Source: Folioceros fuciformis
Taxonomy: Eukaryota
NCBI GenBank assembly: GCA_049999805.1
Contig: JBNGIO010006005.1
Span: forward strand, 52,691-116,690
Length of the DNA: 64,000 nucleotides
Direction: 5' to 3'
The position numbers and the translations under genes are program-made. Positions 9,946-43,288 of the stretch are shown one piece after another (the stretch's first letter is position 1; the number at the start of each line of letters is the position of its first letter). The notes beneath the pieces were generated by a model. The model was not told the origin of the DNA. It did no database searches and saw only the letters and a list, made by a program, of their open reading frames with translations.

Positions 9946-11058
9946 AAACATCCACCAGAAGAGTGCTGAGTACGAAGAGAACAGGCCTTTCACAATTTCG
10001 TGCAGCAATGAGGTCCCAAGACCAAGGTAAGCATCTCGCCTGCGGACACACAACTACAGCAGGGACTTCTGTCTGGAAGAGAGACAGATTAGCAAAATCC
10101 TCCCCACCCGAGACCTAAACCCTAACCCACGGACGAGTCCTGTTGGCATTGCCAACTATCAGGGAATCTATCGCCACCCGCTCACACAAACACGCCAGCG
10201 GGCGAAGAGCGGAAATCACAAGTGTAGAGATCCGGTGCCCTAAACAATCAAAAAAACGATCCCCAACATCAAACTGCTACGGGTCCAGTCCGCTACAAAC
10301 CAAGTCTGGGCCAGACAACGTCCCAGTCCAACGTTTGGACCCGCCACCCGAAATCGATTCCCGATTGCCACAGCCTCCAGTAATGCAGTCGGTGACGACC
10401 GCGCCGCCCCAATCCAAGCTCATCCATGACTCATAGACGCTTCACAGAGCAGACAATCCTTGCACTCCAACGTACACATACAAAGGTAGGGATGAGAGGG
10501 GAAGATACCTGGGTTTGGTGCGCCCACTTTTTCTCATTCCTTCGCCTTGTCAACACACCGACAAAGAGACATCCGGCAAAATGCATTCCAATTGGTGGAA
10601 TCCAGTGAGCCTTCGACCTGTGTCGGCTTCAGCAGACCCGCCCACGACGACAAGTTCAAGGGCCCCTACTCCGTGGTCGGCATGCTAGAGGGATGCCAAC
10701 CCGTACGCCAAAAACCCTGAATCCGCAATCAGCGTCGTGCCTTCCAATTTTGAACCGACCAACGCGCCACGTTGATGAGCACATTCCAAGTGGTGACGGG
10801 AGAGCCGACTGGTGGAAGAAAAGCAAAGCCCAATGTAGCGTATGTGCGGGGTAAAGTCCGTTTTTATCTAACCGCTCAACAGTATTGGCTGTATTTGTCC
10901 TCGGGAGGGTCCAGGATTAGCTTTTAGGTCTACGTGTGCAATTGAAGCAAAAGCAGCCAGCAGCCACGTTTCTGCACGATGGACGATCGATTTCACCGCT
11001 CTCGCTTCGACAAGGGCGCACCACAGCCACACACTCACAGCCGGGGCTCGGTCTGGTG

Positions 11059-25636: not shown

Positions 25637-28600
25637 TCAATCAGATTGTGCCGAAGGATTGATAGCAGCCAGTTTCTCGTAAATAATCCTAATATTTGGC
25701 CGCAAAGAGCGAGTGGCAATGCAACTTAAAGATATCGCTAACATGTCATCCATCCCCTTAGGGGGTTCCTGGTCCCTATGCACACCAACCAAAGCGGGAT
25801 CGAAGCAATCCACTGCTCGTCCTTCGTTCGCTAGAAGTCTGACCCAGTCAGGCAAATCAACTGCCCCAGAATTTCCTGAAATAATATCCCCTGCACCTTT
25901 ACCAGTGAGAATCTCCATGAGTATAACACCAAATGCATACACATCAGCCTCGAACGATGGCTTCGGTTTTTTCGCCGAAGCAAGTTCTGATGACCGATAT
26001 CCGAGAGCTCCAGCATTCAAGATAGTGTTTGCCGTCCCTGCTTCGGTGACTAGCCTGTGCAGACTGAAGTCAGCAAGTCGACCATCAAGATTAGGCCCAT
26101 CCAGTAATACATTCGTGGCCTTCAGATTACCATGGGGTAACTGGTGCTCAAGTTGCAAGTAGTTCAAACCACGTGCAATATCCACTGCAATACGGAGCCG
26201 TTGCTCCCAACTCAGAGGCGCGAATCTCCGGCCCGTCCTTTCGTACAGCCTCCCAGCCAAACTGCCTGAAGGTATGAAGTCAGAAACCAAAAGCTTTTCA
26301 TGCTCCCTTGGCCCCCAATAGTATCCCCTCAATGCCATCACATTGGGATGCTTGACATTCCCAAACTTTCTGGCCTCCCCTATGAACTTCTTCCTACTCT
26401 TCGCCAATCCCTCCCTGAGCCACTTTACAGTAAGTACATGGCCACTGTCCAAAGTTGCTTTGTAAGACGTCCCATGGCTGCTCCTTCCCAGCACTTCAGC
26501 GGGAGCCCTAGACAGCTCCTCTGCTGTAAACACTATGCTAGTATCAAGCAAAAACAAATCCCCTGCAAGTCGCTCCGGTGAACACACTCTTAGGACGGCT
26601 GGCTGCTCTTGCGGCATTGCCTCGCCAGGACCTTGGGGTTGCAGATGCACATATGGAACTGGTGAAGGGACATCCGTCTTGCCATTGCCTTCCACACTCT
26701 TGGGCTCCTCCACAGAGGCTTCTGTGGAGGCTCGGTAGCTATGGCCCTTCAAAATACCTTTCAGTTTCACAGTCCCAGAGCTCGCAGCTTCTGACCCTGA
26801 CAGTGAGCCAGACTCATTCTCCTGCGAGTCACCTGCCCTCAAGTGATTGTGTTCTGATTTGGTGCGCCCAATATATTCAGGACTCCTGGCCATTACCACC
26901 TGTGATTTAGACATGTTCCTGTAGTAAAGGAAGAGTCCTGCAGCAAGAAGAATAGCTGCTGCTGCACTGGAGCCACCTATTAGACCTGCTTCAACTGCAG
27001 ACCGATTTCCTTTCTTCCCATGTGAACCATCAGTCCCAGATACCAGCGACCCGTTCCAAAGCTTCAGCAGCGGATTGTTTGCAAAAGAGGAAGGTGGGAA
27101 CCTTTCCAGGCTTGCAGGCAGCGTCCCAGAGAGGTTATTGTTCGACAGATTTAATCCAATCAAACCAGGAAGCAGTCCAAGGTCACTAGGAATGGGGCCT
27201 GTTAGCTGGTTGAAGGACAGATCAACATCATGTAGATCCTGAAGGCTTGACCAGTTAGAAGGAATAGACCCGCTTAATGAGTTGTTGCTGAGATCTAACG
27301 AAAAAAGATTAAGAAAATACATAAACAAAGGAGGAATAGGGCCGGTCAACTGGTTACTGGATAGATTCACAACAGCAAGTGGTGATTGCATCACGTCAGC
27401 AGACCCAAAATCTGGTAATTCGATACTCCCAGTGAACGCATTGTCTGAAAGGATTAGTCTTCTTATAGACAAGTTGAAGAGAAAAGCAGGTACTGACCCG
27501 TCTAGAGAATTGGAACTCAAATCAAGGCCTTCCAATCGGGTGAAGTCAGTAAACCCCGAGGGGATCTCACCAGAGAGACTGTTGTGAGAAAGGTTTAGTG
27601 ACCACAAAGCAGCAAGAAAAGCAGGTGCATCATCAGGTAGTGGGCCAGTGAGAGAGTTCCAACTGAGATCTATCACCTCCATTGTAGATCCCCAGCCTGA
27701 GATATCCGAGACCACCCCTGAGAAGTTGTTTCGGCTCAGGTCCACCAGACTAACGCTTTCAAACTTGGATGGCAGCTTGCCCCCGAGACGATTCCAAGAG
27801 AGATTTAGGATCCTCAACGTTGTGGACGTAACTTTATCCACTGGCCCCTCAAACTGATTTCCACTGAGATCAAGCTCTTTCAAAGGAACTTGACTGTACA
27901 GTTCTGAAGGCACCCTCCCACTGAAGTTGTTATTACCAAATCGCAACGTGGTGGCCCGGTCAAGCTTAATGCTCGGCAGGTGGCCAGTAAACTGGTTGTG
28001 GCTCACATCCAATACCTCCAAAAAAGCTGACACAAAGATTGCAGCAGGACTGCTCAGCTCGACACTGAATTTGTTGTAGCTCAAGTTGAGATACTCCAAT
28101 CTATTCAGCTGGGCAGGATTGATCAACCATGAGTCGTTTGCTGTCAGCATGTTACTGCTCAAATCCACTATCTTGACCAGTGGCATCTTCAACCAGGATT
28201 GATCCACATCGCCCGAAAAGTTGTTTCCTCGAAGGTCCAGAACCTCAAGCACTGAAAACCCATTAAACGTAACCATGCCTGACAAACCATTGAAGGACAG
28301 ATTGAGCGAGACGAGGTTGTGAAGGTCGCCCAGAGACGGAGGTATGCCTCCTGACAGCAGGTTGTGGCTCAAGTCTAACTGCAGCAGCTGTGACAGACCC
28401 GCAACCTCATCAGGTATCCCACCGTCAAACTGATTATTGCCCAGAGACAAATTCTGAAGGGTCCGCAGACTTCGGAAAGAGGCGGGGATATGTCCCACGA
28501 ACCCATTAAAGGATAAGTCCATAGACTCGAGGGCCTGCAGTGACCCGAAGTCATCTGGCACACCCCCCGAAAAGAAATTGTGAGACAAGTTGAGGGATGT

Positions 28601-28894
28601 CAATTGCGTGAGATTGCCAAGCGTGTTTGGTAAGATCTGGCCACCCAATGAGAAACCGCCAAGGTCAAGTCCCACCACACTTCCGACTTCAGAGCAGGTC
28701 ACTCCCGACCAGCCTTGCGGGCACCCATTTCCATCCACGCTGCTCACATTCCACGACCCCAGAGCCTGCGCATTACTGCTTATCCCACGAAGGAAGTCGA
28801 GAAGTCGGTTGGAGTCACCTAAAGGGTCCGCAAGGACACACAACTGCAAAATGGCCAGGAAGAGAAGCGCCACAATCCAACGAAGCGCCTGCAT
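25637..28894 (-). CDS. LRR-III receptor-like pseudokinase, GHR1/SIRK1 clade; single exon
   Basis: Signal peptide from ATG 28894, CPQGWSGVTC cap, ~20 LRRs, TM, SPERLAGDLFLLD...LSRAPAEVLGRSSHGTSYKATL...TVKWLREG...YYWGPREHEKL; HGNLK replaces HRD, DFS replaces DFG. Confidence 0.93.
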   Translation of the reverse strand: MQALRWIVALLFLAILQLCVLADPLGDSNRLLDFLRGISSNAQALGSWNVSSVDGNGCPQGWSGVTCSEVGSVVGLDLGGFSLGGQILPNTLGNLTQLTSLNLSHNFFSGGVPDDFGSLQALESMDLSFNGFVGHIPASFRSLRTLQNLSLGNNQFDGGIPDEVAGLSQLLQLDLSHNLLSGGIPPSLGDLHNLVSLNLSFNGLSGMVTFNGFSVLEVLDLRGNNFSGDVDQSWLKMPLVKIVDLSSNMLTANDSWLINPAQLNRLEYLNLSYNKFSVELSSPAAIFVSAFLEVLDVSHNQFTGHLPSIKLDRATTLRFGNNNFSGRVPSELYSQVPLKELDLSGNQFEGPVDKVTSTTLRILNLSWNRLGGKLPSKFESVSLVDLSRNNFSGVVSDISGWGSTMEVIDLSWNSLTGPLPDDAPAFLAALWSLNLSHNSLSGEIPSGFTDFTRLEGLDLSSNSLDGSVPAFLFNLSIRRLILSDNAFTGSIELPDFGSADVMQSPLAVVNLSSNQLTGPIPPLFMYFLNLFSLDLSNNSLSGSIPSNWSSLQDLHDVDLSFNQLTGPIPSDLGLLPGLIGLNLSNNNLSGTLPASLERFPPSSFANNPLLKLWNGSLVSGTDGSHGKKGNRSAVEAGLIGGSSAAAAILLAAGLFLYYRNMSKSQVVMARSPEYIGRTKSEHNHLRAGDSQENESGSLSGSEAASSGTVKLKGILKGHSYRASTEASVEEPKSVEGNGKTDVPSPVPYVHLQPQGPGEAMPQEQPAVLRVCSPERLAGDLFLLDTSIVFTAEELSRAPAEVLGRSSHGTSYKATLDSGHVLTVKWLREGLAKSRKKFIGEARKFGNVKHPNVMALRGYYWGPREHEKLLVSDFIPSGSLAGRLYERTGRRFAPLSWEQRLRIAVDIARGLNYLQLEHQLPHGNLKATNVLLDGPNLDGRLADFSLHRLVTEAGTANTILNAGALGYRSSELASAKKPKPSFEADVYAFGVILMEILTGKGAGDIISGNSGAVDLPDWVRLLANEGRAVDCFDPALVGVHRDQEPPKGMDDMLAISLSCIATRSLRPNIRIIYEKLAAINPSAQSD

Positions 28895-30549
28895 TTTGTG
28901 CGAAAGCAGGGCAGGGCTGAGCCCCACACGACGGCGTTGCCGAGCGTCGGTCACCCAGCATTCATTTTGCCCGCCAAGCCACCACCCACTGTACGACTAG
29001 CCGCCGTGCCGACTCTGTTTTCGAGGCAAACAACACGCGCACACGCCAGCAGCAAGTGTGAGCACCACGACAAACTACCCAGCTGGCGGCCGCAGAAAGT
29101 CTTGCAAGGCGGAGGAAACTTCACAGTGCGAACGTCAAATAACCGAATGCAAATGTGAGCCATACCCAGCCGGTGCGCGAAAATGCCACAAGATCCCGCC
29201 CTTGCTGCCACCATCCACCTTGCCGGCGATGCTGCAACGAGCACACCCGAGAGGTAGCTCAAAGTCGTCGTACCCCTGGCCCGCAGCACCGCACCTGCAT
29301 TGCTTGCCTGCAGCTGGCCCGGCCAAGTCCATGCTTCCTACATAATCGGACGTGCTCCCGCCAAGCCCACACCACCCGAACAAGAAGGCGACAAACGAAC
29401 AACAGTGTTCTTGCGGCGGGGGCAAATATAGCCACCAACAGCTGACGGGCAGGTGCTGTTGGTGGGGATAATGAAAGCAGAAGGCGGCTTCTTGGTGTAA
29501 CGGCACACAGCAGCCGGAAAGGCCAGGAGGGGGGGAGGGGGGTGTGCTTTGCTGCGCAATGCCGTGCTGTGCTGTGATTGATAATAGTGCCGGCTCAGCC
29601 CGCAAAGCAGCTTTTCCACACGCTTTGAGGCCACAACATGTGCCTGCATTATTCTGCTTTCTTGCCAAACGCTCGGGAGTGACGGAATGCAAGTAAGACT
29701 CCGATCAAACCCTAAAAGCAGAATGCACTGCCAGTGCCGTGCTTGTCATCTGACACTGGCAACCCGCTGCCGCAGCGAATGGGGGAGCCCGACGTTGGGC
29801 TTGTTTGATGAGAATCTTGAGCTTCGCAACACGCCTTTATTAGACTGCCCGCAGCAAAGCCAATGGACCAACGGCCCAGTGACGACACTGGCCCTGCTCC
29901 CTCTCCCTGCTGTTTCCTATTTCCCCTTGCATAAAGCACCTCGAACTTTCCCCCATCGTTCTCCAAAGCCGCAGAGTTTGCAGCGTTTGCGGTTACAGTC
30001 ACATGCGTCTGCACGTTAGCTCTTTCAGCAGCTCCAGCTGCAGCCCTGTACCTGTGACCGGTGTGACCCTGTCCAACCAGAAAGGCTTTGTTTGATAATA
30101 TATAAAAAGGCTACGTCCATATCTGAAAGCACGGAGTTGATTGTGAGATGCATACGTAGCGTGATGCGGTTTTGGAGCTGTGTTAGCGAATACTTGCGTC
30201 TCACAATCAACTCCTTCTATCTTCATTAAATCCGGTGACCCGCATCCACTCGTACGGCAGGCACTAGCCATACGTGGCTGCAGCTGCAAACGGATGTGGG
30301 TGAAGTACATCGTAAATCACACTCCTTCGCGGTCCGTTCGTGATATTCTGCTGAATCGAACATCTCAGATTCTGATTCAGTGAATCTGTGAAATGCGTTA
30401 CGGTGCGCTCCTCTAGTCGTTGGCGCCGTCGCCGTCCCGATTGCATCGCCTTCAGGCTGCCGCCGTCGGTACCAGAGCGCTGGGTGGTGTGGATTTGAAT
30501 TTGGGCATGAACAACTTTCGGTCGGAGTTCGGGGAAATCTATTGAGAGT

Positions 30550-33438
30550 CATGGGCGGTTTGGCAGCTGTGCTTCCGTGGGCAGTGGCGGGAGGCAAAAC
30601 TCAGAGCCATGGGAGCCGGGGCAGTGATTCGATGGGCAGGTTGCGGGAGAATCGTTTTGGGAGACATCATTCCTTTGCTTTGAGGTGCCGAACCGAACGA
30701 TGCGTAGACGACGTAGCTGGACCCATTGAGACAACCAAGCTTGATAAGAGGTGTGCTGTTGTGTGCGTTTCAGCAATGGCTTCCTTCCCATCTGAAGCTT
30801 TCCTATCCTTCGGCCCTAGTCCGTAGTCCGAAATTTCGTTTTTCTTTTTCCAGGGCTGAAGACGAGGCCAGACCGTTATTGAGAGAGACGTCGAGGAAAC
30901 GATGGATTCGCAGGTTCGGCTCCTCCGCCCCCAGACATTATGGCATTGAGTGGTGTGAGGCAGTGCCATGAGCAAATCTGCTGTGACTTTCCACGTATTC
31001 TAATGCCAGATTAACAGCTACTGGCTTCACAAGTCCACAGGGAAGTTAAGAGTAGAGGAGGAGGAATTGGATGGCCATGGAGTATCAACCAAGCTGAACA
31101 GCAGCAGCCATGGTGAAGAGTCACCAGCATTGCGGCTTCCTAACCTGCCGCAGCCTGTTGTCGACTTCATTCTACCTGCTAGATATCCAGGTAACCGTGT
31201 CCTTGAAGGATGTGTTCTCCTTAGTGGACAGAACTGTGAGAAACTAACATTAGTCCCTGTATTCAAGGACACAGAGTCTGTATCAAGTGATTACCTTCAA
31301 TACATGCTTTGGCAGTTTCCAACTCATCTGACGGGGTGGACATGCAGCACGCTGGTGACATCCAGCCTTTTAACGGTATGCGGTCATGGTGACTAGTGCG
31401 TACCGTGTTGTGTTGGTTGTTGAGTTTGTTATGCTTACATGCGGCATGCTCTGAGCCCCGTATCGCAGGCTGTTGGCATTGGTGGGGATGCTGGAACGGC
31501 GGCAGCTACAACTGCTGCTGTCAAGTATGTCCTCCAAACTAGCATACTTCGCTTTGCAGTGTGTCGATCTCAAGATTTATCTAGTAGAACTCACAATACG
31601 CTGGGCACCTTGATGTAGGTGGGTGGTCAAAGATGGATTAGGAAATGTCGGTCGGTTCATCATAGGTGCGTTCAAACCTTCGTGTACAGGATGACCTTAC
31701 GGGTGTGCCTTTCTTATCTGGTTGTTTTGTCTTATGCAGGGGGTAGTTTTGGGAGTATATTTGATGATGATCCCAAGCAGTGGAGACTGTATGCTGACGT
31801 TATTGGTAGTGCTGGAGGGTACTTGTCTCCCTGCGACCTTTCAAGTCCACCTGAAATATTCAAACGTACTGTGCTTGCCCTCGCTTACAATTGAATTTCT
31901 GGTTTGGGGGTTGTGCAGCATGTTTGAGCTGGCGACTCCTGTCGCACCAGCATACTTCATACCCTTGGCTTCAATTGGTCGGCTGTCCAAGGTGATTGCC
32001 CCTTCAAGTATGCTGTCTTGGAACTGCTGAATATGGCATTTGCCAAGAAATGATATGGATGGACACTAATATGATGGTAGCACGTGGTGTCAGGCCATCG
32101 CAAAAGGCCTTAAGGATCCTTCCGCTCGCGTGATACAGAGCCACTTCGCAGTCTCAGACAACCTCGGTGATGTATCTGCTAAGGTGAGCAATTCAGTCTC
32201 AGTTGCTCCTGAAACAGACATTTAGCAGAGCAGATTCACCTGGTTGAGACTGCTGATCACCTTCAACTTACTGGCAGTCCGAGGTGTGGGAGGTTGTTGC
32301 TCAACTCATGGGTTTAGTAGCCGGTGTATCCTTTCTGGTGAGGACGACCACAATGCAGCGGTCACATAAGAAGCCAGCAGTTGTGTATGCTAGGTGCAAA
32401 TGTGGACGGAGTTGCTTCTGGTTAAATCTCTGCTTGCAATGTGCAGAGTGCTCCTTGGGTGACAGAATCTTATTGGAAAATAGTCCTTGGGTGGGCAATC
32501 ATTAGGTCATGTCATCTTTATTGCCGCTATCGTAGTGTATCATCTCTGCAACTCCGCACTGTAAGTGGCCTTGCCGTCCAATGTTAAATTCTTGGAACTG
32601 TAACTCGGTTTCACTGAACTTGACCCGCCCGCAGATCAACCACAAACGAGGACTTGTGTTGATTCACGCCTACATCCAAGGGCTTCCTATTCCTGGTACA
32701 GTTTACTTACTAGTGTGGTGGTGTTAGTGGCACTGGAAAGGATGCATGATCTTACATGGGTTGTTATCCACTGTCAGGGATTCAAGACTGCAATCTCAAG
32801 GAGAGCATCCTGGTGCCACGCTTGCTTCTGGGGCCGCACGTTTCAGTGGGGTGCACCGTGACGGAGGTGGTAGGAAGTCGATGCACTCGGTTGGAGGTGG
32901 GACGCCTTGAGCGACTTTACTGCTGGTGTCGTCTTCACTTGTGAACGCGCGTGCGTTACCTCCTGTTGTTCATTCCGATTGACTTTCATGTAGGTGAAGA
33001 ATCTCAAGCGTCTGTACGAGAAAGAAGACTACATCCTTGTGCTCCATCCACATCTTCTTCATCAGCAAGAAGCAAGAGTCATATTCAAGGTGCTGTCTGA
33101 AAACATCCATACGCTACCCCGTGCTCCGTGTTTCTGTCATTCTTGGCCTACTGGTGTGGGATCTCACTCGCAAAGTGCTGTCCCAGAATGGAGCAACGAG
33201 CATGACGGTACTGAGAAGCATGTGGCAAGCTGTTTGGTTGGTTTGCAAGTCGCCACATGGAATGACCCCGCAAGCTGGACTTCAATGGCAGTCAGACAGC
33301 TTGCGTTCTAGTATACAGGCTCTCCATGAGCGTTTTGATCTCTTTCTGGATGCTATACGAGACGCCGGATGGGATACGAGTAAGAGTGTCCTACAAGTTC
33401 CAAACTCAGCCCCCCTTCTTCTGGAGGATCTGATCTGA
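30550..33438 (+). CDS. ROOT UV-B SENSITIVE (DUF647) family protein, RUS5-like, multi-exon
   Basis: DFILPARYP, SVSSDYLQYMLWQFP, WVVKDGLG, GSIFDDDPKQWRLYAD, KGLKDPSARVIQSHFAVSDNLGDVSAK, EVWEVVAQLMG, LRSMWQA; start approximate. Confidence 0.9.
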
Positions 33439-34260
33439 GTAGGGGTCGGGGTCTCTAGAGCATCCATCTGGAATCTTCAAAGATCGAAGTATCTTGTAGT
33501 GAAGACATGAGATTTCACTGATGAATGAAATAGGTTTGGAAAATAAGATGAAAGAAGCTCACAAAGGCAAGGGTCGAAGACTCCTTTCGGTATGTCAGGA
33601 TCCAGGAGTTGTGCTTTGGTATGCCTTAGCCAAGGTCGTGAGAAACTGGCATGGCCGCCCCATGGTCTACATGAAGGATATGCCCACTCCAGGGGAATAT
33701 TATGTCGTAATTGTTTAAAATATATGTACATATAATTATATATAATGTAATCTTATTTTTAGCACATTCTTTGACTTATTAAGGACACTCTTTTGGAGCA
33801 CACGGCACGCTCAACCAGATGCTTGCACGGTGCCCTGTTCCCTTCCCCTTACTGCTAATATCCATATCGGCTTCTTCAAGCTGGATGCCTCGAAGAAGCC
33901 CACTCACTCATCCTTCAACCTTTGGAATGCCCTAAAGGCGACTTGCTCACCCTTGGATATTTGGCTGTTCCATTTTCATACAGGATAAAAATATCTGGTT
34001 TCACATTCAAGTCTGTCACTTCCCAGAAGAGGACTTTCGTTTCAGTGCAGCGCACCGTGTGTGAGAATCTCGGCCAGCCTTTTCACCTATCTCTCGGCAT
34101 ACATCACGGCACCTCGCATCTCTGCCACGGCTCGATCCTCCGCATGCGGGGTGCAGGTCTGCATGAAGGCATTCTGCGCTGGTGAGTGTAGTGAAATTCT
34201 CAACAGTCTAAGGCCACGTTCTGCTCCGGTGGACGCTGCCCTTGAGATACTGCCGTGCCT

Positions 34261-34806
34261 CTACACACCTTCACGGACGAGGCGGAGCTGCTCGCGCACT
34301 TCCATAAGCGCGTAGCCGAGCAAGTTGAGGCCGCGCCACTGCCGCGGGTCCACCGCTCGCGGATCGGACGCCGAGAGGCCGATGCCCCAAATGCAGTCCA
34401 AAGGGCTTGCCTCCACCAACACGCGGTCTCCGGTGCTCAGCAGGTAGGCGGCCAGATCCGGATGCTGCCCGAACTTTCCGAGATTGCCTTGCACGACTAT
34501 CCCCGACCGCTCCCGCGTCCACACCTCTTCCTGGAAGCCTTTCACCTTCCGTCCCAGCCCCTTTGCTGCTCCCGGACTGTTCGCTGCCAGTATCAGCCCT
34601 TCCGAGGCCTCGTCTCCGAACAAGCGCGCCTTGGCTGCCATCATCCAATGCTCCGCGGTGGCGTACCGAATTCCATCTATCGTAAACTCCGCAGGCCACC
34701 ATTGGCTCAGGCAGGCTGACCCCGCCCTGCCGTCTCGCGCCTTATGGCCCCAGAACAGCAGATACTCCGTGTCGTCCATAGTTGCAACAATTTGCCTGCT
34801 AGCCAT
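34261..34806 (-). CDS. Stand-alone NADAR (COG3236/DUF1768) N-glycosidase / ADP-ribosylhydrolase family protein, bacterial-like, intronless
   Basis: LLFWGH...CLSQWWPAEFTIDGIRYATAEHWMMAAKARLFGD...AKGLGRKVKGF...GNLGKFGQH...LLSTGDRVLVEASPLDCIWGIG...WRGLNLLGYALMEVR; ATG at 34806 (or 34779). Confidence 0.93.
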   Translation of the reverse strand: MASRQIVATMDDTEYLLFWGHKARDGRAGSACLSQWWPAEFTIDGIRYATAEHWMMAAKARLFGDEASEGLILAANSPGAAKGLGRKVKGFQEEVWTRERSGIVVQGNLGKFGQHPDLAAYLLSTGDRVLVEASPLDCIWGIGLSASDPRAVDPRQWRGLNLLGYALMEVREQLRLVREGV

Positions 34807-35528
34807 CGTCTTCCAAGTCACACAGAGATCCAGGGCCGATACTCGAAACTATGTACCTTGAAGCCTCGGCGTTGCGTGCTTGACAAGCATTCAGCGAGGG
34901 TGTAAAGGTGTTCAGCACAATTTGGCAGTCTTGCTCAACACAGCAGCAAGGCGAGCCAAGTTGCCTTCTGCACAACTAACTGTTATAGCTGCTGCTCAAT
35001 CCCTCTCCCCGGGGGAAACCTGGCGGGCGATAAAAAAAAAACCAGAAAAAAAACAACTCCCTAAACCTTCGGTACGGCCCAAAAAGATATATGACAATGC
35101 ATCCACCGTGTGTTTTCCAGAAAATAATATTTTCAGCCTTTTCTTATGAAGCGTTCACGGTTTTATTCCCCGCGAATGCTCCATGGGCTAAGGACTCGTT
35201 GGGGTAATTAAGGCATGAGGCCAAGCTTTACAATGGATGACGAACACCTGACCAGATCACACACTTGACTTACCTCTAGGTTTCTAGGGCTACAATTTTC
35301 ATGATCCCAGATCATGTTTTTCTGCGTAGAGGAGTTTAGCATGATGTACCGGGCTGCAAACCGTGAGCATGATGTACGAGGCTGCCAACTTTGAGTGTGC
35401 CTCCTCCGAAGTGAAGACTGTCTGCCTGATCCAGGGGTAGGGAACCAGATTGCTTAATCGCCCTACAAGCGTCGCCAAGCATGAACGATGAAGACGATGG
35501 CGAACAGACGCATTACGAAGTGATTGCC

Positions 35529-36392
35529 CTAATCGGGCTTGGTCACACAGATGACGTGCGTGGGAACCATGTAGGCGGTGATGACTTCAGATGTCTGAAT
35601 GTGCTGCATTCCCAGCTCTTCAAGTTTCTTCCTATACTCTTGCAGGTGGTGCAGATCCCAGATGATGGCACGCCCACCAGGTTTCAGGACCCGCACGATC
35701 TCGAGGAGACCCTTGGACCTCTCGGCGGCTGCGGCCTCTTTGGCCCCGCTGGTCCCGAATATGTCCCTGCCCAAGGTGTGCAGGCACAGCGCCGACACTA
35801 CGAGATCGAAGTAGGCATCGTCGAAGGGCAGATGCCGGGGATCCCCGGTCTTGCAGGTGACGAACACTTGGGTCCCTTCCCTGCTGCTCGTCTTGAGGGT
35901 GTCGGCCATGCTTCTCCGGGGCTTGCTGCCATCGGGCAACCAGAGATCAACCCCGACCACCCTCCCGCCGCCTCCCTCCTTCTTCAGCTTCTCCGCAACC
36001 GCGTTGAGAAGCATGCCTCGGCCGCACCCCACGTCCAGCACCTTGTCGATCTTGGACCAGTCCTCCACCAGCTCCAGCATCCGGTGGGAGGTCTCGTAGC
36101 ACACGATCACATCCGAACAGAGCAGGTTGGCAGCCGTCACCAGGCAGCACACGGCCAGCAGGGCAGTCAGGGCCACCGCAAAGCCCAGCACCAGATTCCA
36201 TAGCTGGAGGGGTAGGAGCGGGAGGGAAGCCTTCAGGACCAGCGCCAGCCGCGCGAGATAGCGCACTAGCACTGATGCGGAAATTCCTAGCACCCCTCCT
36301 TGCACCAGCAGGCTGAACACCAGCCACCCGTTTTCCAACCCGTAGACATCCCACACCCACAGCCAGCCTGCCTTTCTCGATCCCCGGGCCAT
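35529..36392 (-). CDS. Membrane-anchored class I SAM-dependent methyltransferase (Methyltransf_11), intronless
   Basis: N-terminal hydrophobic helices, VLDVGCGRG motif I, VVGVDLW, GDPRHLPFDDAYFDLVVS, EIVRVLKPGG. Confidence 0.9.
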   Translation of the reverse strand: MARGSRKAGWLWVWDVYGLENGWLVFSLLVQGGVLGISASVLVRYLARLALVLKASLPLLPLQLWNLVLGFAVALTALLAVCCLVTAANLLCSDVIVCYETSHRMLELVEDWSKIDKVLDVGCGRGMLLNAVAEKLKKEGGGGRVVGVDLWLPDGSKPRRSMADTLKTSSREGTQVFVTCKTGDPRHLPFDDAYFDLVVSALCLHTLGRDIFGTSGAKEAAAAERSKGLLEIVRVLKPGGRAIIWDLHHLQEYRKKLEELGMQHIQTSEVITAYMVPTHVICVTKPD

Positions 36393-36807
36393 GCCGGGGC
36401 TGCACAGATTCGCCCTGAACCCAGCTCCAAATTGTGAGTCGGGATCTGAGCTTCCGCTTCCCACGCTCTGAAATGCCTGACTGTGCTTGCCGCTGCTGCC
36501 GGACTCCCCAAGCGTGCATACACAAATGGCCCACGATGCTCATATACCCACAAACAGGCTTTCCAGTTTCACTTTCAGTATTACGACGGTAAGCTTTCTT
36601 TGATGGGATTGTGTCATGCCCAGCGGACAGTGCGTTGTCAGCCGATTCTCTTCTTCTGGTCACGTGATCCGTGGCCGCTCGCTCCCCATTTCGCTACGGC
36701 CTCCGTGCTCCTGAGGAATTGGGTGCTGCGGACAGCACAAGTAACTGAGCTTCACGACTGGGTACACGGATGAGCTGCAGGTGACCGGACGAGAGCGTGG
36801 TGCAGCC

Positions 36808-39800
36808 ATGGTAAGCGAGCCTTTGGCACTTACACCGTGATGGCGTTGCTGCGGAACATTGTTTCTGCTGCCCTCCCTCTTTTCTGGGTTTTGGCGTGTC
36901 GCTTGTTTGTATCTTTTTCGAGTCGAGGACTTGCTGGGACTGTGGGTTTTACTTTATCGCTGCCTTTGGCTCCTCTGTGGCTCTGAGCTGCGGCCAATTC
37001 TACCTTTCGATGCCTCTCTGGGCTGCTTCGGTTCTGTGTGGGTGGAGCTCACTCATGTGAGACAGAGTTCGCGCTCATGCACTGCTGTGGAAGCAGGCCG
37101 GAAGCCTGGAGGAATGCGTCAAGCTGCTGCAGGGGGGGACCGATGAGAAGCGCTTGGTTGGGCTACTTCTGGCAACGAAATTTGTCTCGGGGAACGATGC
37201 AGCAGCCATTCGCCAATTGTTTGATGCCGTTGGGATGCAATTTATAAACCGACTCATCAAAACCGGTCTAATCTCCTCGTGACTCGCTTACTGAGGCTCG
37301 GTTTTGGGCTTGAATCGACTCCTTTTTTGGCGGATTCCATGTGGCTGCGGTGATCACGTTTTGCTATTTTTCAATTTCTTTTGCTCAGGAACAACAGAGA
37401 TTCAGCATGCCAGTGAGCAACTAGGGCAGCAGCAGGGTTACTTGCACCTCGCCCTGACTGTGCTAGCAGCATTTAGCAGGTTGCCTGGCCTTGCTTCAAC
37501 GGATGAGTTTGTGGATAAAGTGCCAGTCTTAGTTCAAACATTGGGCAAGAAGTATGTCCCGAGCCATGAAGAAGGCATCGCTATTTCGTCCTGTTTGCTT
37601 GACTTGGTTGTTCAAAGTTCCCTCAATGTACTTACCTTCGATATCTCCATTGGGTCTGCTGCCGTGCGTGCTTGAAAAGTATTGAACGTCAGTGCTTCCA
37701 GGGACTACGAGGCATCATTTGGGGACTGCTGTGAGTGCCTTCTTTCAATAGCAGGAGCCTCGGAAAGAGGACGTGTGGCAGTGCATGAAGCCCAGGCATG
37801 GCTTTCAGTTGCAAAGATCCTATATGATCCCTCAGGTATTCCATCTTTTCTATCTCATTTTACGTCGATCTTCACCGTGTTGTGGCATGCTTTGGAATCT
37901 AAAACACAAGATCTCGGCTTGTCAGATGCTTCTTGGGTGCAGGTGGCAATGACTCTCCTGTCGTTCTTGCTTCAGTCTCACCCAAATAAAGCTGATATAG
38001 CTGCTCACAGGGCAGAATTGGTTCCTGTGGTAGTCTACAATTTTACTGTTTTATCTGACTCTTGCCTTGTGCATTGTGGTGTTCAAGTTGGAACATCAGC
38101 GTGCTGTACAGGTCAATAACTATCTCAGCTCTTTCGTGGTTCAGGTGCCTTATATCGCCAAGCAGCTTGCCTCTCAGCAAGATCTTCGCAAATTTGAGGC
38201 GTTGAGTCTCCTTCGGATTCTTGTTTCCTCCAATATTCGGGTAGATTTTTGTTTCTTAGCAGGCTATACTTTGGTGCTCAGATGGTGAGCGGTTTTCCTG
38301 CGTCTCGAGGCTATACCATGTGTCCTCCAGTTATTAATTACCGGTTTTGAGCTAAACTTTCTCCTTTGGCTGTCAGAGAGTTGGGCTGTCAGCACCTCAG
38401 TTCCAACCTCAGGGCGAATGGACAAATGATGCCCGCTCAGGCCTTGGACACATTTTACAGAGTCGTGTAGGTAATCCACTCGCTTTACTACATTCGTTTC
38501 CACGGATCTTCTATTCAACTTTCTAGCCTGGTGGCCACCATTCCTATCTACAGAGAAACAAATCGAAAGGTGTGTGGATTTCAGTCGCAGAGCATAAACA
38601 GGCGTGCCTGGAGCTGGTGGAGGCTATTGTAGAAATTGTAGGAGATGATTGGTTGTTGGGCTCGATGACTCTGCCACACGAGACAAAACCAGCTCCCCGG
38701 TTCAGGTGTGTTTACTTCTGCTGGTCTGCTTTGAGAAATATTGATCTTTGACGCATTTAATGGACGTTGTATTTGCAGCTTACCAAGGTCGTATTTCAGG
38801 TTTTTCCGTGTAGTTGTTGAGGCCTTGAGGGTTGAAACACAGTCAACGCTCCACGATATTGCTCAGACATTGTTTGCATCAGGAGAAAACGCTTCTCAGC
38901 ACACCCCTGAAGCTGCTCAGAAGCTGCATGCACTCGCTACATACTATGCTCTGCTTGAACGTGTAGTCACCATGATCTCTGAGGAAGCAGGTCTGCTGTG
39001 ACTTGGAGGCCAGATGTCCTTGCGTTTCTATTTGAGTACTTGGATAGCTTCCAAGGGAACTCCTATTTCCTGGTTCACTGATCGTTGGTGCGGAACAGCT
39101 GAAGATAATCAGATGAGTGAGAGCTTGCTGGAGAAAACCTTCACAAGCGTAAATGACATTGTGGGTGTGGTCATTGAGCTGCTAGAGGGTGCACAGGTGC
39201 TTGAATAATCCTTGCTGATTTTTTTCCGATTCACACAGCTAGTGTCCGTCTGCATGATTCTCTAGTCTGACGTCTGGTGTTCCTTGCTCAGGAGCATGGT
39301 CTCACTCGTGGTGATATCCTTCTTGCGTCCGTACGTCTGCTGGGCAGGTCTGTGATCCTTGTAGGCCGTCGAAAAAAGTACACAACACTCATTCACCTTC
39401 CTCTTTGCAGTTATACTTATGCACTAAAGAATGGGACATTGTCTGTGGCAGGTACTTGGGTGAGGCTCCATCTGCTCATAACCAACGCGTGCTTCGTCTT
39501 CTCGGTTACCTGCTGTCTGTTACCACTGAAGGTGAAGAAAGGTACGTGCTTTCTGTCGATTGTGACACTATATCCTGACCATTGTAGCCATTCTGCACGT
39601 GTGGTAAAACGGCACGTTCGTGAAGGACGCTAACCCCGTATTTCTATAGACCGATACATGCCGTCAGTTTTATGCTACCCTCCTTGTCTTTAATGACGAT
39701 GGACGTTGAGGGATGCACTGCTCTGTTATCCTGTGCAGCACACAAGCAGGTTGGAGTCCGTGGAGTCGCTGTCTGTTTGGTGTTTGATTTCTGAGTGTTG

Positions 39801-41409: not shown

Positions 41410-42824
41410 TCACGATAATCTTCTCAGCACAGAGAAGTATAGTGGTCCCCAGCCCTGGGCCACGTCCGGCAGGACAATCCAGCCGTGTTCTGTTCTCTCG
41501 CCGATAGGCCAGGTTTGCGGCACGACTTCGAACTGGACTTTGGATTTCCTCATAGCCTGCAGGAGGACAAAGATGACAAGAGATACGTCAACAACAAACC
41601 CAGCACAAGCGGCACAGAAGGTTGACAAATTGCTACATAGTTGAACCTTTGAGATGACACCGTCGTTTTCCAAATGGCTTATGGAACAAGTAGAGTACAC
41701 CACGATGCCACTGAGATGGACACTTTTCAGGGCCGCAGTCAAGAGCGCATACTGCCTTGTTGATAGGGTACTTGATCGGCGAGGCGTCCACTGCTGGAGT
41801 TCGTGCTTGTCGTGGATAAGGTGCCGCTCTGACGAGCAAGGTGCATCGACCAGAATCTGGATTTTTCAGGTCAGCGTGATCAGCAGCCACAATGAGACAA
41901 CGCTTATAGAACTGGAGTCTCTTCCGCCAATTCACATGCAAGGTGGGTGCACCTACTTTGTCATACAGCTCTCGTGCCAACCATCTGGTGCCATCTCGGG
42001 AAGTTACTCGAACACAGTGACGGAACTGTTGCGGTATGTAGTCCCGGATAATCTGTTCGTCACACCATCACCATCACCGCCTTAGAGTTCTTGCAACACA
42101 TGAAGCATGACAGCATGCCACAACCAACCTTCAAAAGTCTCCTACGTCGGTCCTCCGAGAGCTCGTTGGCAGTGAGGGATCCGTTGGGCAAATCCAGTTG
42201 CTGCAAAATAGCCAAGGACTTTCCCCCAGGCGCCGCGCACATATCCAGCACTCGGTCCCCGCCGTTCAGCTGCAGAGCTTGAGTTACCAGCACTGAGGCA
42301 GCGTCCAGTAGGTAGTACGACCACACATCTCCCGCGTCTTTCCCTGGCTGGGGAAACCTAGTGGCTGCCGCGTACACTGGGATATTGAGAAACTGGAGCT
42401 GCACCAGGCCGGGCATGGATGACAGCACCTCGGCACATGACTGCGGATCCGCGAAGCGATTGAGCATGCAGGAAGACTGTACATCGCGTTCCAGAGCGGG
42501 CTGAAGCGACAGCCACCGATCCCTGTACTGCTCCCGGTAGAAGGAGAAGAAGGCCTCCACCACCGCAGCCTTTCTCTCAGCCTCCTGCTCCTTCCGCCTC
42601 AACAACTTCATCTTGGTCCTGGAGAGCGGCTTCCCGGGTCTGTCTCCACCCCCTGGTGTCTCTGATCCTGCCCCTGCCTCCTCCTCGCATACTACTGCTG
42701 TACCTCCACGCTGGTGAGCCCACATCCTGCATCTCTTCTCCACCACAACCCCAGGCTGGGCTAGACTCTGAGGATACCTCGTGGGAAGGGCATTGCCAGC
42801 GGGCCTGATGCTCAACAAGCCCAT
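41410..42824 (-). CDS. RsmB/NOL1/NOP2/Sun RNA m5C methyltransferase, NSUN3/NSUN4-like, 4 exons
   Basis: YYLLDAASVL...VLDMCAAPGGKSL, LTANE, YDK|ILVDAPCSSERH (motif IV Cys), VVYSTCS...END (motif VI Cys), C-terminal GWIVLPD...WGPLYFS. Confidence 0.88.
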
Positions 42825-43288
42825 GGCTGCTGCAGCTCAGCAGGCCTTCATTTAGCAACTTTTTCATGCCGAACTTCCTTCGCCAGGATCTTCGTCTTCT
42901 GTCACTTGGAGTTAGCTCCAGCTGCGCATCCTTTCCTTTGAGAGAGCTACAGTTCATGTCAGAACAATTGCCGTCTCAGCGATGACATCAAGCACACAAA
43001 GCCCCTGGAAAACGAACTTTTGCTGAGGACGAGACTGCGATGCATTGGTAGAGAGAAATGCACTTTGGTAATTATGTCACCGCCTCTCTGGTGTTTACTA
43101 CTATTGAAATAATGTGAAAACACTCACAACCACTGGTTGTAGACGTGATATCAAAGAAGCCTGGATGGATGGCTTGTTTCAATGGGTCTTGCAGGTTGTG
43201 ATTGCTACGTCCTAACAAGGAACCTTTGACACACACCTTGCCAAACTATTTCTCTATGTATGTACAGATCCTCATGATCGGTCTTAGC

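Follow-up and report, generated by a model that had tools for sequence, protein, structure and literature searches.

How did a gene of bacterial type come to stand alone in a hornwort chromosome, and what might it do there? These questions are raised by a short open reading frame (ORF) for a NADAR protein in a 64,000-nucleotide stretch of Folioceros fuciformis DNA (contig JBNGIO010006005.1; hereafter the window, whose coordinates are used throughout). A sequence-only reading of the window had proposed a stand-alone, bacterial-type NADAR gene in a plant chromosome, with a source in actinobacteria, and protein matches, a scan of prokaryotic genomes, linkage, base composition and phylogenetic trees all uphold it. 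In our best explanation, which we hold to be probable though by no means secure, the gene is the ortholog of AANG001420 of the hornwort Anthoceros angustus, derives from an actinomycete and has been kept in the hornwort as a working enzyme of the type of SCO5665 from Streptomyces coelicolor.

The NADAR gene and its actinobacterial relatives

The ATG-to-stop frame in the ORF listing of the window is intact and comprises a coding sequence of 546 bp (181 aa plus stop), with an in-frame TAG 14 codons upstream of the ATG and a longest stop-to-stop frame of 588 bp. Its product matches the Pfam family PF08719 (NADAR) over residues 18–175, i.e., profile positions 2–163 of 163, with 177.7 bits against a cut-off of 35.1, which is far above chance. 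The protein also exceeds the cut-off of the NCBIfam model TIGR02464 (riboflavin biosynthesis intermediates N-glycosidase; 167.2 versus 73.7 bits), a domain model without power to separate NADAR subfamilies, and with 34.3 bits it stays below the cut-off of 240 for NF053876, the DS32_2 anti-phage NADAR. The motifs quoted in the sequence-only reading (LFWGH, CLSQWWP, TAEHWMMAAKARLFGD, EASPLDCIWGIG and WRGLNLLG) are all found in the translation. The features of the gene are the following:

34261..34806, minus strand: NADAR coding sequence (ORF; PF08719, E 2.9e-52), the sole part of 29000–37000 that matches 80 actinobacterial loci
34411..34413, minus strand: codon of Glu132, the putative catalytic Glu of the last strand, invariant in the homolog alignment and aligned with the Glu of YEAS in 8BAU, the structure of the Phytophthora nicotianae NADAR
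34393..34395, minus strand: codon TGC of Cys138, a position that is Arg in 195 of 198 actinobacterial homologs
34849..34890, minus strand: upstream ORF of 13 codons in the 5' untranslated region (UTR), in frame with the main ORF; its TAG (34849–34851) closes the frame above the start

With a domain that begins at about residue 17 and an N-terminus that falls short of those of the bacterial homologs, the plant protein has no room for a transit peptide. Its length, the stop above the ATG and a transcript colinear with the genome mark it as a stand-alone protein rather than a riboflavin-type fusion of the kind known from plants, in agreement with the earlier claim that both a fusion partner and a transit peptide are lacking. 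There is no second NADAR in the window: a search with 270 queries returned only a chance-level match at 10390–10515 (E 0.008), where the ORFs encode nothing NADAR-like.

The affinity of the hornwort protein to Actinomycetota is clear. All 72 named proteins among its best 120 matches of near length are from actinomycetes, with genera including Streptomyces, Streptantibioticus, Plantactinospora, Yinghuangia, Actinacidiphila and Rugosimonospora and identities of 61–69%; the remaining 48 are without names, and no plant protein is among the 120. A scan of prokaryotes with one genome per species (185,579 species) yielded at least 600 candidate stretches, 596 of 600 being confirmed, and the best 80 loci all belong to Actinomycetota (69 to Streptomyces and 11 to other genera; 58–67% identity). 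The protein atlas entry is likewise NADAR, mostly Actinomycetota. The best 120 of 201 longer relatives are fusion proteins of bacteria (GrpB, QueC, ADP-ribosylglycohydrolase, NMNAT-like, PF10021 and GNAT), together with one mollusc protein (from the abalone Haliotis, 42%), and include neither a plant protein nor a RibD-type domain; nesting with green-plant or PyrR-fused forms, which the sequence-only reading had set against a transfer, is thus not what these matches point to. The fused bacterial relatives are about 47–64% identical to the hornwort protein, and their set of NAD/ADP-ribose-flavored partners is specific to this NADAR type.

Phylogenetic analysis, which the earlier reading had called for, placed the hornwort NADAR among actinomycete families, but its nesting inside Actinomycetota is not significant. 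In a FastTree phylogeny of 270 rows, the protein lies inside the block of its best near-length matches; in a quick IQ-TREE analysis of 105 rows, it groups with a Glycomyces locus and one unnamed protein (SH-aLRT 85); and in a careful tree of 42 rows, it pairs with Glycomyces (ultrafast bootstrap 86, SH-aLRT 58), while the surrounding Streptomycetaceae, Micromonosporaceae, Streptosporangiaceae and Nocardiaceae and the backbone are without resolved branching. The relatives without organism names included 150 cluster representatives, most of which, along with 11 Streptomyces loci, are left out of the 42-row tree. A clade of 25 named actinomycete rows without the hornwort NADAR was not rejected by the approximately unbiased (AU) test (p 0.49; 176 columns). 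Formal nesting is therefore statistically unsupported, and the donor family within Actinomycetota is not pinned down. The hornwort protein shares 58–66% identity with bacterial proteins, and actinomycete families share 61–70% with one another, in keeping with a transfer long ago or with a donor that was not sampled.

The AU result leaves a position outside the sampled actinomycete clade, as would be expected of an ancient, vertically inherited plant gene of bacterial look that was lost in all other plants. We regard such a history as very improbable, given the absence of plant proteins from both sets of 120 best matches and identities of 58–69% to actinomycete proteins. The same search with the methyltransferase encoded next to the NADAR gene returns land plants (Marchantia paleacea, 56%, the best named match; Diphasiastrum, 57%; Riccia, 53%); none of its matches exceeds 72%, indicating that the lineage of the window is poorly represented in the protein database searched. 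Furthermore, the A. angustus genome paper (PMC7027989) calls the gene hornwort-specific, and the NADAR gene is intronless while neighboring genes have many introns. Not all neighbors are spliced: the receptor kinase gene at 25637–28996 and the methyltransferase gene at 35529–36392 are intron-free as well, so that missing introns alone are no mark of foreign origin here.

Residence, expression and a published counterpart

Is the gene truly part of the plant genome? Logan contigs of public sequencing runs were compared with the window over 30500–38500; the runs comprised one that possibly represents the source sample (X1), one with the same organism code but from another sample and another study (X3) and those of two related organisms (B and C). 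We take X3 as RNA: in neighboring genes, 14 of 15 listed joints, each of them bounded by GT..AG, are skipped by its contigs. One X3 contig is colinear with the window from 33958 to 34965 without a single difference; the NADAR transcript hence has no intron and carries a 5' UTR of about 159 nt and a 3' UTR of about 303 nt. An X1 contig spanning 30500–35108 joins the NADAR gene to a native gene of the RUS family. The linkage to the plant flanks and the expression on which the sequence-only reading depended are accordingly both observed, as is the intact, intronless ORF of about 181 aa between RUS-family and methyltransferase genes that it had described, for which the ORF listing, Pfam matches of the neighbors and the colinear RNA contig agree. 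The next X1 contig begins at 35116, beside a poly-T tract (35032–35057), and X1 does not confirm the joint between the NADAR and methyltransferase genes, the evidence for which is consequently the assembly together with the gene order published for A. angustus. The transcript and the neighboring genes are as follows:

33958..34965, minus strand: unspliced NADAR transcript contig (X3 record 4; 1012 nt, no other letters, no gaps)
30748..33543, plus strand: native spliced RUS-family (DUF647) gene, convergent with NADAR (PF04884 and PF24160 in exons; at least 9 GT..AG joints in an X3 contig)
35529..36392, minus strand: native intron-free Methyltransf_11 gene upstream of NADAR, from the first Met of ORF 35529..36539 (Pfam)
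25637..28996, minus strand: leucine-rich repeat (LRR) receptor kinase, 1119-aa frame, within the syntenic block (LRR and kinase domains by Pfam; counterpart of AANG001423)
41410..42836, minus strand: exons of an RsmB/Nop2-type RNA methyltransferase, also in the syntenic block (two ORF pieces with PF01189; counterpart of AANG001417)

A further X3 contig agrees with the window as far as 34290, beyond which its letters are unrelated, a 20-mer of them being absent from the window. The minus-strand AG at 34292–34291, just before this break, may be the splice acceptor of another transcript, or the contig may be chimeric.

Diverged copies of the gene are present in both related organisms. In organism C, 34269–34792 is represented by eight small contigs, of which one contains a gap and those longer than 90 letters differ from the window in about 7–11% of letters; in organism B, 34269–34394 is covered. 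Taken together, the NADAR pieces of the two organisms differ in about 6–11% of letters, and a 6.7-kb contig of organism B on the methyltransferase and the next gene differs in 7.5% of letters in its coding part and in about 10%.

The base composition of the coding sequence (GC 62.8%; GC at third codon positions, GC3, 74.2%) agrees with plant residence, because the GC3 of 78 actinobacterial homologs averages 93.1% and is never below 82.5% (mean GC 72.4%). Three native neighbors (25637–28996, 35529–36260 and 42060–42836) have GC contents of 50–62% and GC3 of 51–81%. Six-frame peptides of 29000–37000 match the 80 bacterial loci only inside 34203–34858, with no bacterial flank, which indicates that the ORF arrived without bacterial neighbors. 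According to our favored explanation, a hornwort ancestor would have taken up the NADAR gene from an actinomycete as a bare coding sequence of about 0.55 kb, which would subsequently have acquired UTRs of plant type, shifted in base composition towards that of the plant and been retained as the gene of a functional enzyme.

Bacterial contamination or misassembly could appeal to the interval 35108–35116, which the X1 contigs leave unbridged, but is refuted for practical purposes by the X1 contig reaching into the RUS gene, the independent RNA sample with its plant-like UTRs, the diverged copies in two other organisms, a GC3 of 74% rather than 93%, the lack of a bacterial flank and the conserved gene order in A. 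angustus.

This last point also identifies the gene. Pfam matches of the neighboring frames give the order LRR receptor kinase, DUF647, NADAR, Methyltransf_11, an unknown gene and RsmB/Nop2. In the A. angustus genome (Zhang et al. 2020, Nat Plants; PMC7027989), Supplementary Table 32 lists AANG001417 (Nol1/Nop2/Fmu), AANG001418 (nothing), AANG001419 (Methyltransf_11), AANG001420 (DUF1768), AANG001421 (nothing), AANG001422 (DUF647) and AANG001423 (LRR receptor kinase), and the window has the order from AANG001423 to AANG001417, i.e., the same order read backwards. Synteny in a related species, to which the sequence-only reading had looked, is thus found. From the domain, the intronless state, the gene order and the actinobacterial affinity, we conclude that the window is hornwort DNA and that its NADAR gene is either orthologous to AANG001420 or identical with it. 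Supplementary Table 31 of that paper describes AANG001420 as a DUF1768 gene that is intronless, has transcript support, Actinobacteria as donor and no known function, and represents a hornwort-specific horizontal gene transfer (HGT), one of 19 genes in 14 families, 3 of which are from Actinobacteria. The two genes, compared by these table entries, hence agree in Pfam family, lack of introns, transcription, immediate and further neighbors and donor; they differ in length (762 bp stated, 546 bp of coding sequence here), which may reflect the species, the gene model or the meaning of "length." It follows that the horizontal transfer was already published in 2020 and that the novelty implied for it by the earlier reading does not hold.

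The same table also contains AANG001436, which combines PF08719 with PF00383 (cytidine/deoxycytidylate deaminase) and is assigned to K11752. It is the native riboflavin-type fused NADAR, 16 gene models from AANG001420; hornworts therefore have the fused form too, and the stand-alone copy is not needed for the riboflavin job.

Conservation of the active site and the substitution at position 138

For SCO5665, the residues named by Mikolcevic et al. (2026; PMC12945103) are W53, S69, W71, E87, K94, K117, E167, S169, D172 and W175. These ten correspond to W19, S34, W36, E52, K59, K82, E132, S134, D137 and W140 of the hornwort protein, all of which are kept and are invariant in the homolog alignment, with a spacing identical to that of Streptomyces homologs except for a loop between W19 and S34 that is one residue shorter. 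The exact residue numbering of SCO5665 occurs in none of the 270 homologs. The last-strand position that carries the catalytic residue has been reported to differ between types, with Glu in enzymes of the YbiA type, Asp in those linked to DarT1 and His in those of phages (Cihlova et al. 2024; PMC11125620). In the hornwort protein, this position is taken by Glu132, within VEASP, and not by Asp or His. Glu132 would be the equivalent of Glu125 in P. nicotianae and of Glu167 in SCO5665, the catalytic role of which is taken from PMC12945103, where both E167D and E167Q are reported to abolish activity.

Conservation extends beyond the active site. Of the 70 columns conserved at 95% or more in 198 actinobacterial homologs, 68 are kept in the hornwort protein, the exceptions being R138C and F165Y, so that the lack of purifying selection that would have told against the gene in the earlier reading is not what is observed. 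This pattern bears on the possibility that the gene is an expressed but functionless passenger, transcribed and drifting. A radical change at a near-invariant residue (R138C), a ratio of observed to expected CpG unlike that of the native neighbors and the lack of a known phenotype would suit such a passenger, yet we find it improbable, since the near-invariant columns have been kept despite an identity of only 58–66%, the ORF is intact and 7 of the 8 pieces from organism C are gapless. In addition, the four listed differences in the coding sequence, a small and non-random sample, consist of three synonymous changes and R155Q at a variable site.

At position 138, the residue is Ala in both 8BAU and YbiA, which makes Arg a feature of the actinomycete clade and not of the superfamily. 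The sequence-only reading had explained the Cys of DCIWG by CpG deamination. The TGC codon is indeed present, but deamination, although possible, is unsupported: codon 138 in 78 bacterial loci is CGG in 52, CGC in 23, CGT in 2 and CGA in 1, and a single C-to-T change at a CpG can lead to Cys only from CGC or CGT. Moreover, the ratio of observed to expected CpG is 0.99 in the NADAR coding sequence versus 0.53–0.69 in the three native neighbors, i.e., there is no sign of heavy CpG decay. Separately, this ratio raises the possibility that the acquired gene is methylated differently or is not yet at the CpG level of its host.

Likely chemistry and possible role

NADARs hydrolyze guanine-linked ADP-ribose, as reported for a range that includes an orphan enzyme of Phytophthora (Schuller et al. 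2023; PMC11543638), and S. coelicolor SCO5665 (ScNADAR) removes ADP-ribose from both guanine (G-ADPr) and cytosine (C-ADPr) modified by ScARP or Scabin, in DNA as well as RNA (PMC12945103). According to the latter source, SCO5665 homologs are general in Streptomyces, where they accompany ScARP homologs and also occur without them. Its sequence assigns the hornwort NADAR to the "NADAR family" of Streptomyces, of which SCO5665 is typical: it is a stand-alone protein in the range of about 180–200 aa, is 58–67% identical to the best loci of Streptomyces and other actinomycetes and keeps all ten residues. It differs in being plant-nuclear and in the shorter W19–S34 loop, R138C and F165Y. The most likely chemistry is therefore, as far as sequence can tell, the N-glycosidic hydrolysis of ADP-ribose from the exocyclic amino group of guanine, and probably of cytosine, in either DNA or RNA, and Glu132 would be its catalytic residue. 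Two premises of the sequence-only reading need to be revised in this light. The restriction of guanine ADP-ribosylation reversal to non-YbiA NADARs no longer holds, because YbiA-type enzymes are also reported to hydrolyze G-ADPr in vitro (PMC11125620, PMC12945103), and the relevant toxins for the clade of the hornwort NADAR would be pierisin-type ScARP and Scabin rather than DarT1.

Comparison with other members of the superfamily is consistent with this assignment. A Foldseek search with an AlphaFold2 model (13-row alignment; mean pLDDT 77.9, weak at residues 1–7, 19–31 and 134–140) returned only 8BAU and 2B3W (Escherichia coli YbiA) at E of 0.001 or below, pointing to a predicted YbiA-like fold. 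Its best solved relative is 8BAU, determined with ADP-ribose (E 6.1e-22, TM 0.65, 34% identity), which represents an orphan eukaryotic G-ADPr hydrolase (PMC11543638) and is closer by sequence than YbiA (3.6e-11); it is nonetheless much more distant from the hornwort NADAR than the actinomycete proteins are and has Ala at the position of Cys138. YbiA and the fused COG3236 of plants share the fold, the catalytic Glu and a TIGR02464 score above the cut-off, but match less well than 8BAU, and the hornwort NADAR is unfused, with the fused form encoded separately (AANG001436). DarG1 of the BC4488 type belongs to the same superfamily and performs the same general reaction on G-ADPr, but has Asp at the catalytic position (PMC11125620) and adjoins DarT1, whereas the hornwort protein has Glu132 and plant neighbors.

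The main rival shares this origin by transfer but sees the protein as a small-molecule N-glycosidase that clears reactive riboflavin-pathway intermediates or another nucleotide-like metabolite, as do YbiA and the fused COG3236. The TIGR02464 score fits such an activity, and PMC11543638 notes that orphan NADARs may act physiologically on small molecules. The genomic setting in Streptomyces points in the same direction: the NADAR gene belongs to a conserved block that contains genes for aldehyde dehydrogenase in 51, adenosine deaminase in 45 and a DUF4190 membrane protein in 39 of 72 loci, i.e., metabolic genes and not a toxin. In one Streptomyces locus, L028 (4186–8876), the neighbors are aldehyde dehydrogenase, DUF4190, adenosine deaminase and GDPD, and no toxin or ADP-ribosyltransferase gene lies beside NADAR either in L028 or in the plant window. 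Nevertheless, we consider a small-molecule function unlikely, given that the protein matches 8BAU more closely than YbiA, that A. angustus already has a riboflavin-type NADAR in AANG001436 and that the best 120 longer relatives are free of RibD-type domains, several of them being fused to ADP-ribosylglycohydrolase, NMNAT-like and PF10021 domains, suggestive of NAD/ADP-ribose chemistry. The two activities are not mutually exclusive, as YbiA-type enzymes are described as hydrolyzing both G-ADPr and C-ADPr (PMC12945103).

As to what a working SCO5665-type enzyme would do in a hornwort, the most likely role, which we propose more weakly than the chemistry, is the undoing of base ADP-ribosylation caused by the pierisin-type toxins (ScARP, Scabin) of soil actinomycetes. 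Several points weigh against our explanation as a whole. The hydrolysis of G-ADPr and C-ADPr by the hornwort NADAR is deduced from its sequence, and the tie to SCO5665 consists of the spacing shared with Streptomyces homologs together with the statement in PMC12945103. The Arg that is replaced by Cys138 stands beside the ribose-binding Asp137, so that R138C could change or weaken substrate handling, and the structural model has low confidence exactly at residues 19–31 and 134–140. The riboflavin-intermediate model TIGR02464 matches well, nesting inside Actinomycetota gains no support from the AU test, and the cited literature holds no record of hornworts being exposed to such toxins.

There is a precedent for a eukaryote capturing bacterial NADARs. 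Ladybird beetles acquired such genes (cited in PMC12945103), which are tied there to defense against bacterial infection; the likeness ends with the animal host, the two genes and the RNA interference evidence of that case. The authors of PMC12945103 propose that animal NADARs protect against actinomycete genotoxins. We tentatively extend this thought, as a possibility short of an expectation: hornworts may have adopted the enzyme by which toxin-producing actinomycetes protect themselves and turned it into a factor of innate immunity that removes ADP-ribose from guanine and cytosine of their own DNA and RNA, the toxins coming from actinomycetes in the soil or dwelling in the thallus, with R138C tuning the enzyme to the plant. 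A literature search for NADAR, DUF1768, PF08719 or YbiA in combination with HGT, plants or hornworts returned no title or abstract on the function of the hornwort gene.

What has changed since 2020 is the biochemistry. In 2026, SCO5665 was reported to remove the ADP-ribose that ScARP, or the Scabin toxin of the pathogen behind potato scab, attaches to guanine and cytosine (PMC12945103). To the published transfer, the present analysis adds the link to SCO5665 activity, expression and linkage from independent sequencing runs, a measure of conservation and the single radical substitution beside the active site. A well-conserved and expressed copy of such an eraser in a plant offers a direct means of asking whether base ADP-ribosylation of nucleic acids occurs in plants, and whether plants can defend themselves against genotoxins of this kind. 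Since hornworts have become transformable, the question can be put to the test. If the proposal of an innate immunity factor is true, plants would have in the hornwort NADAR their first eraser of base ADP-ribosylation in nucleic acids.

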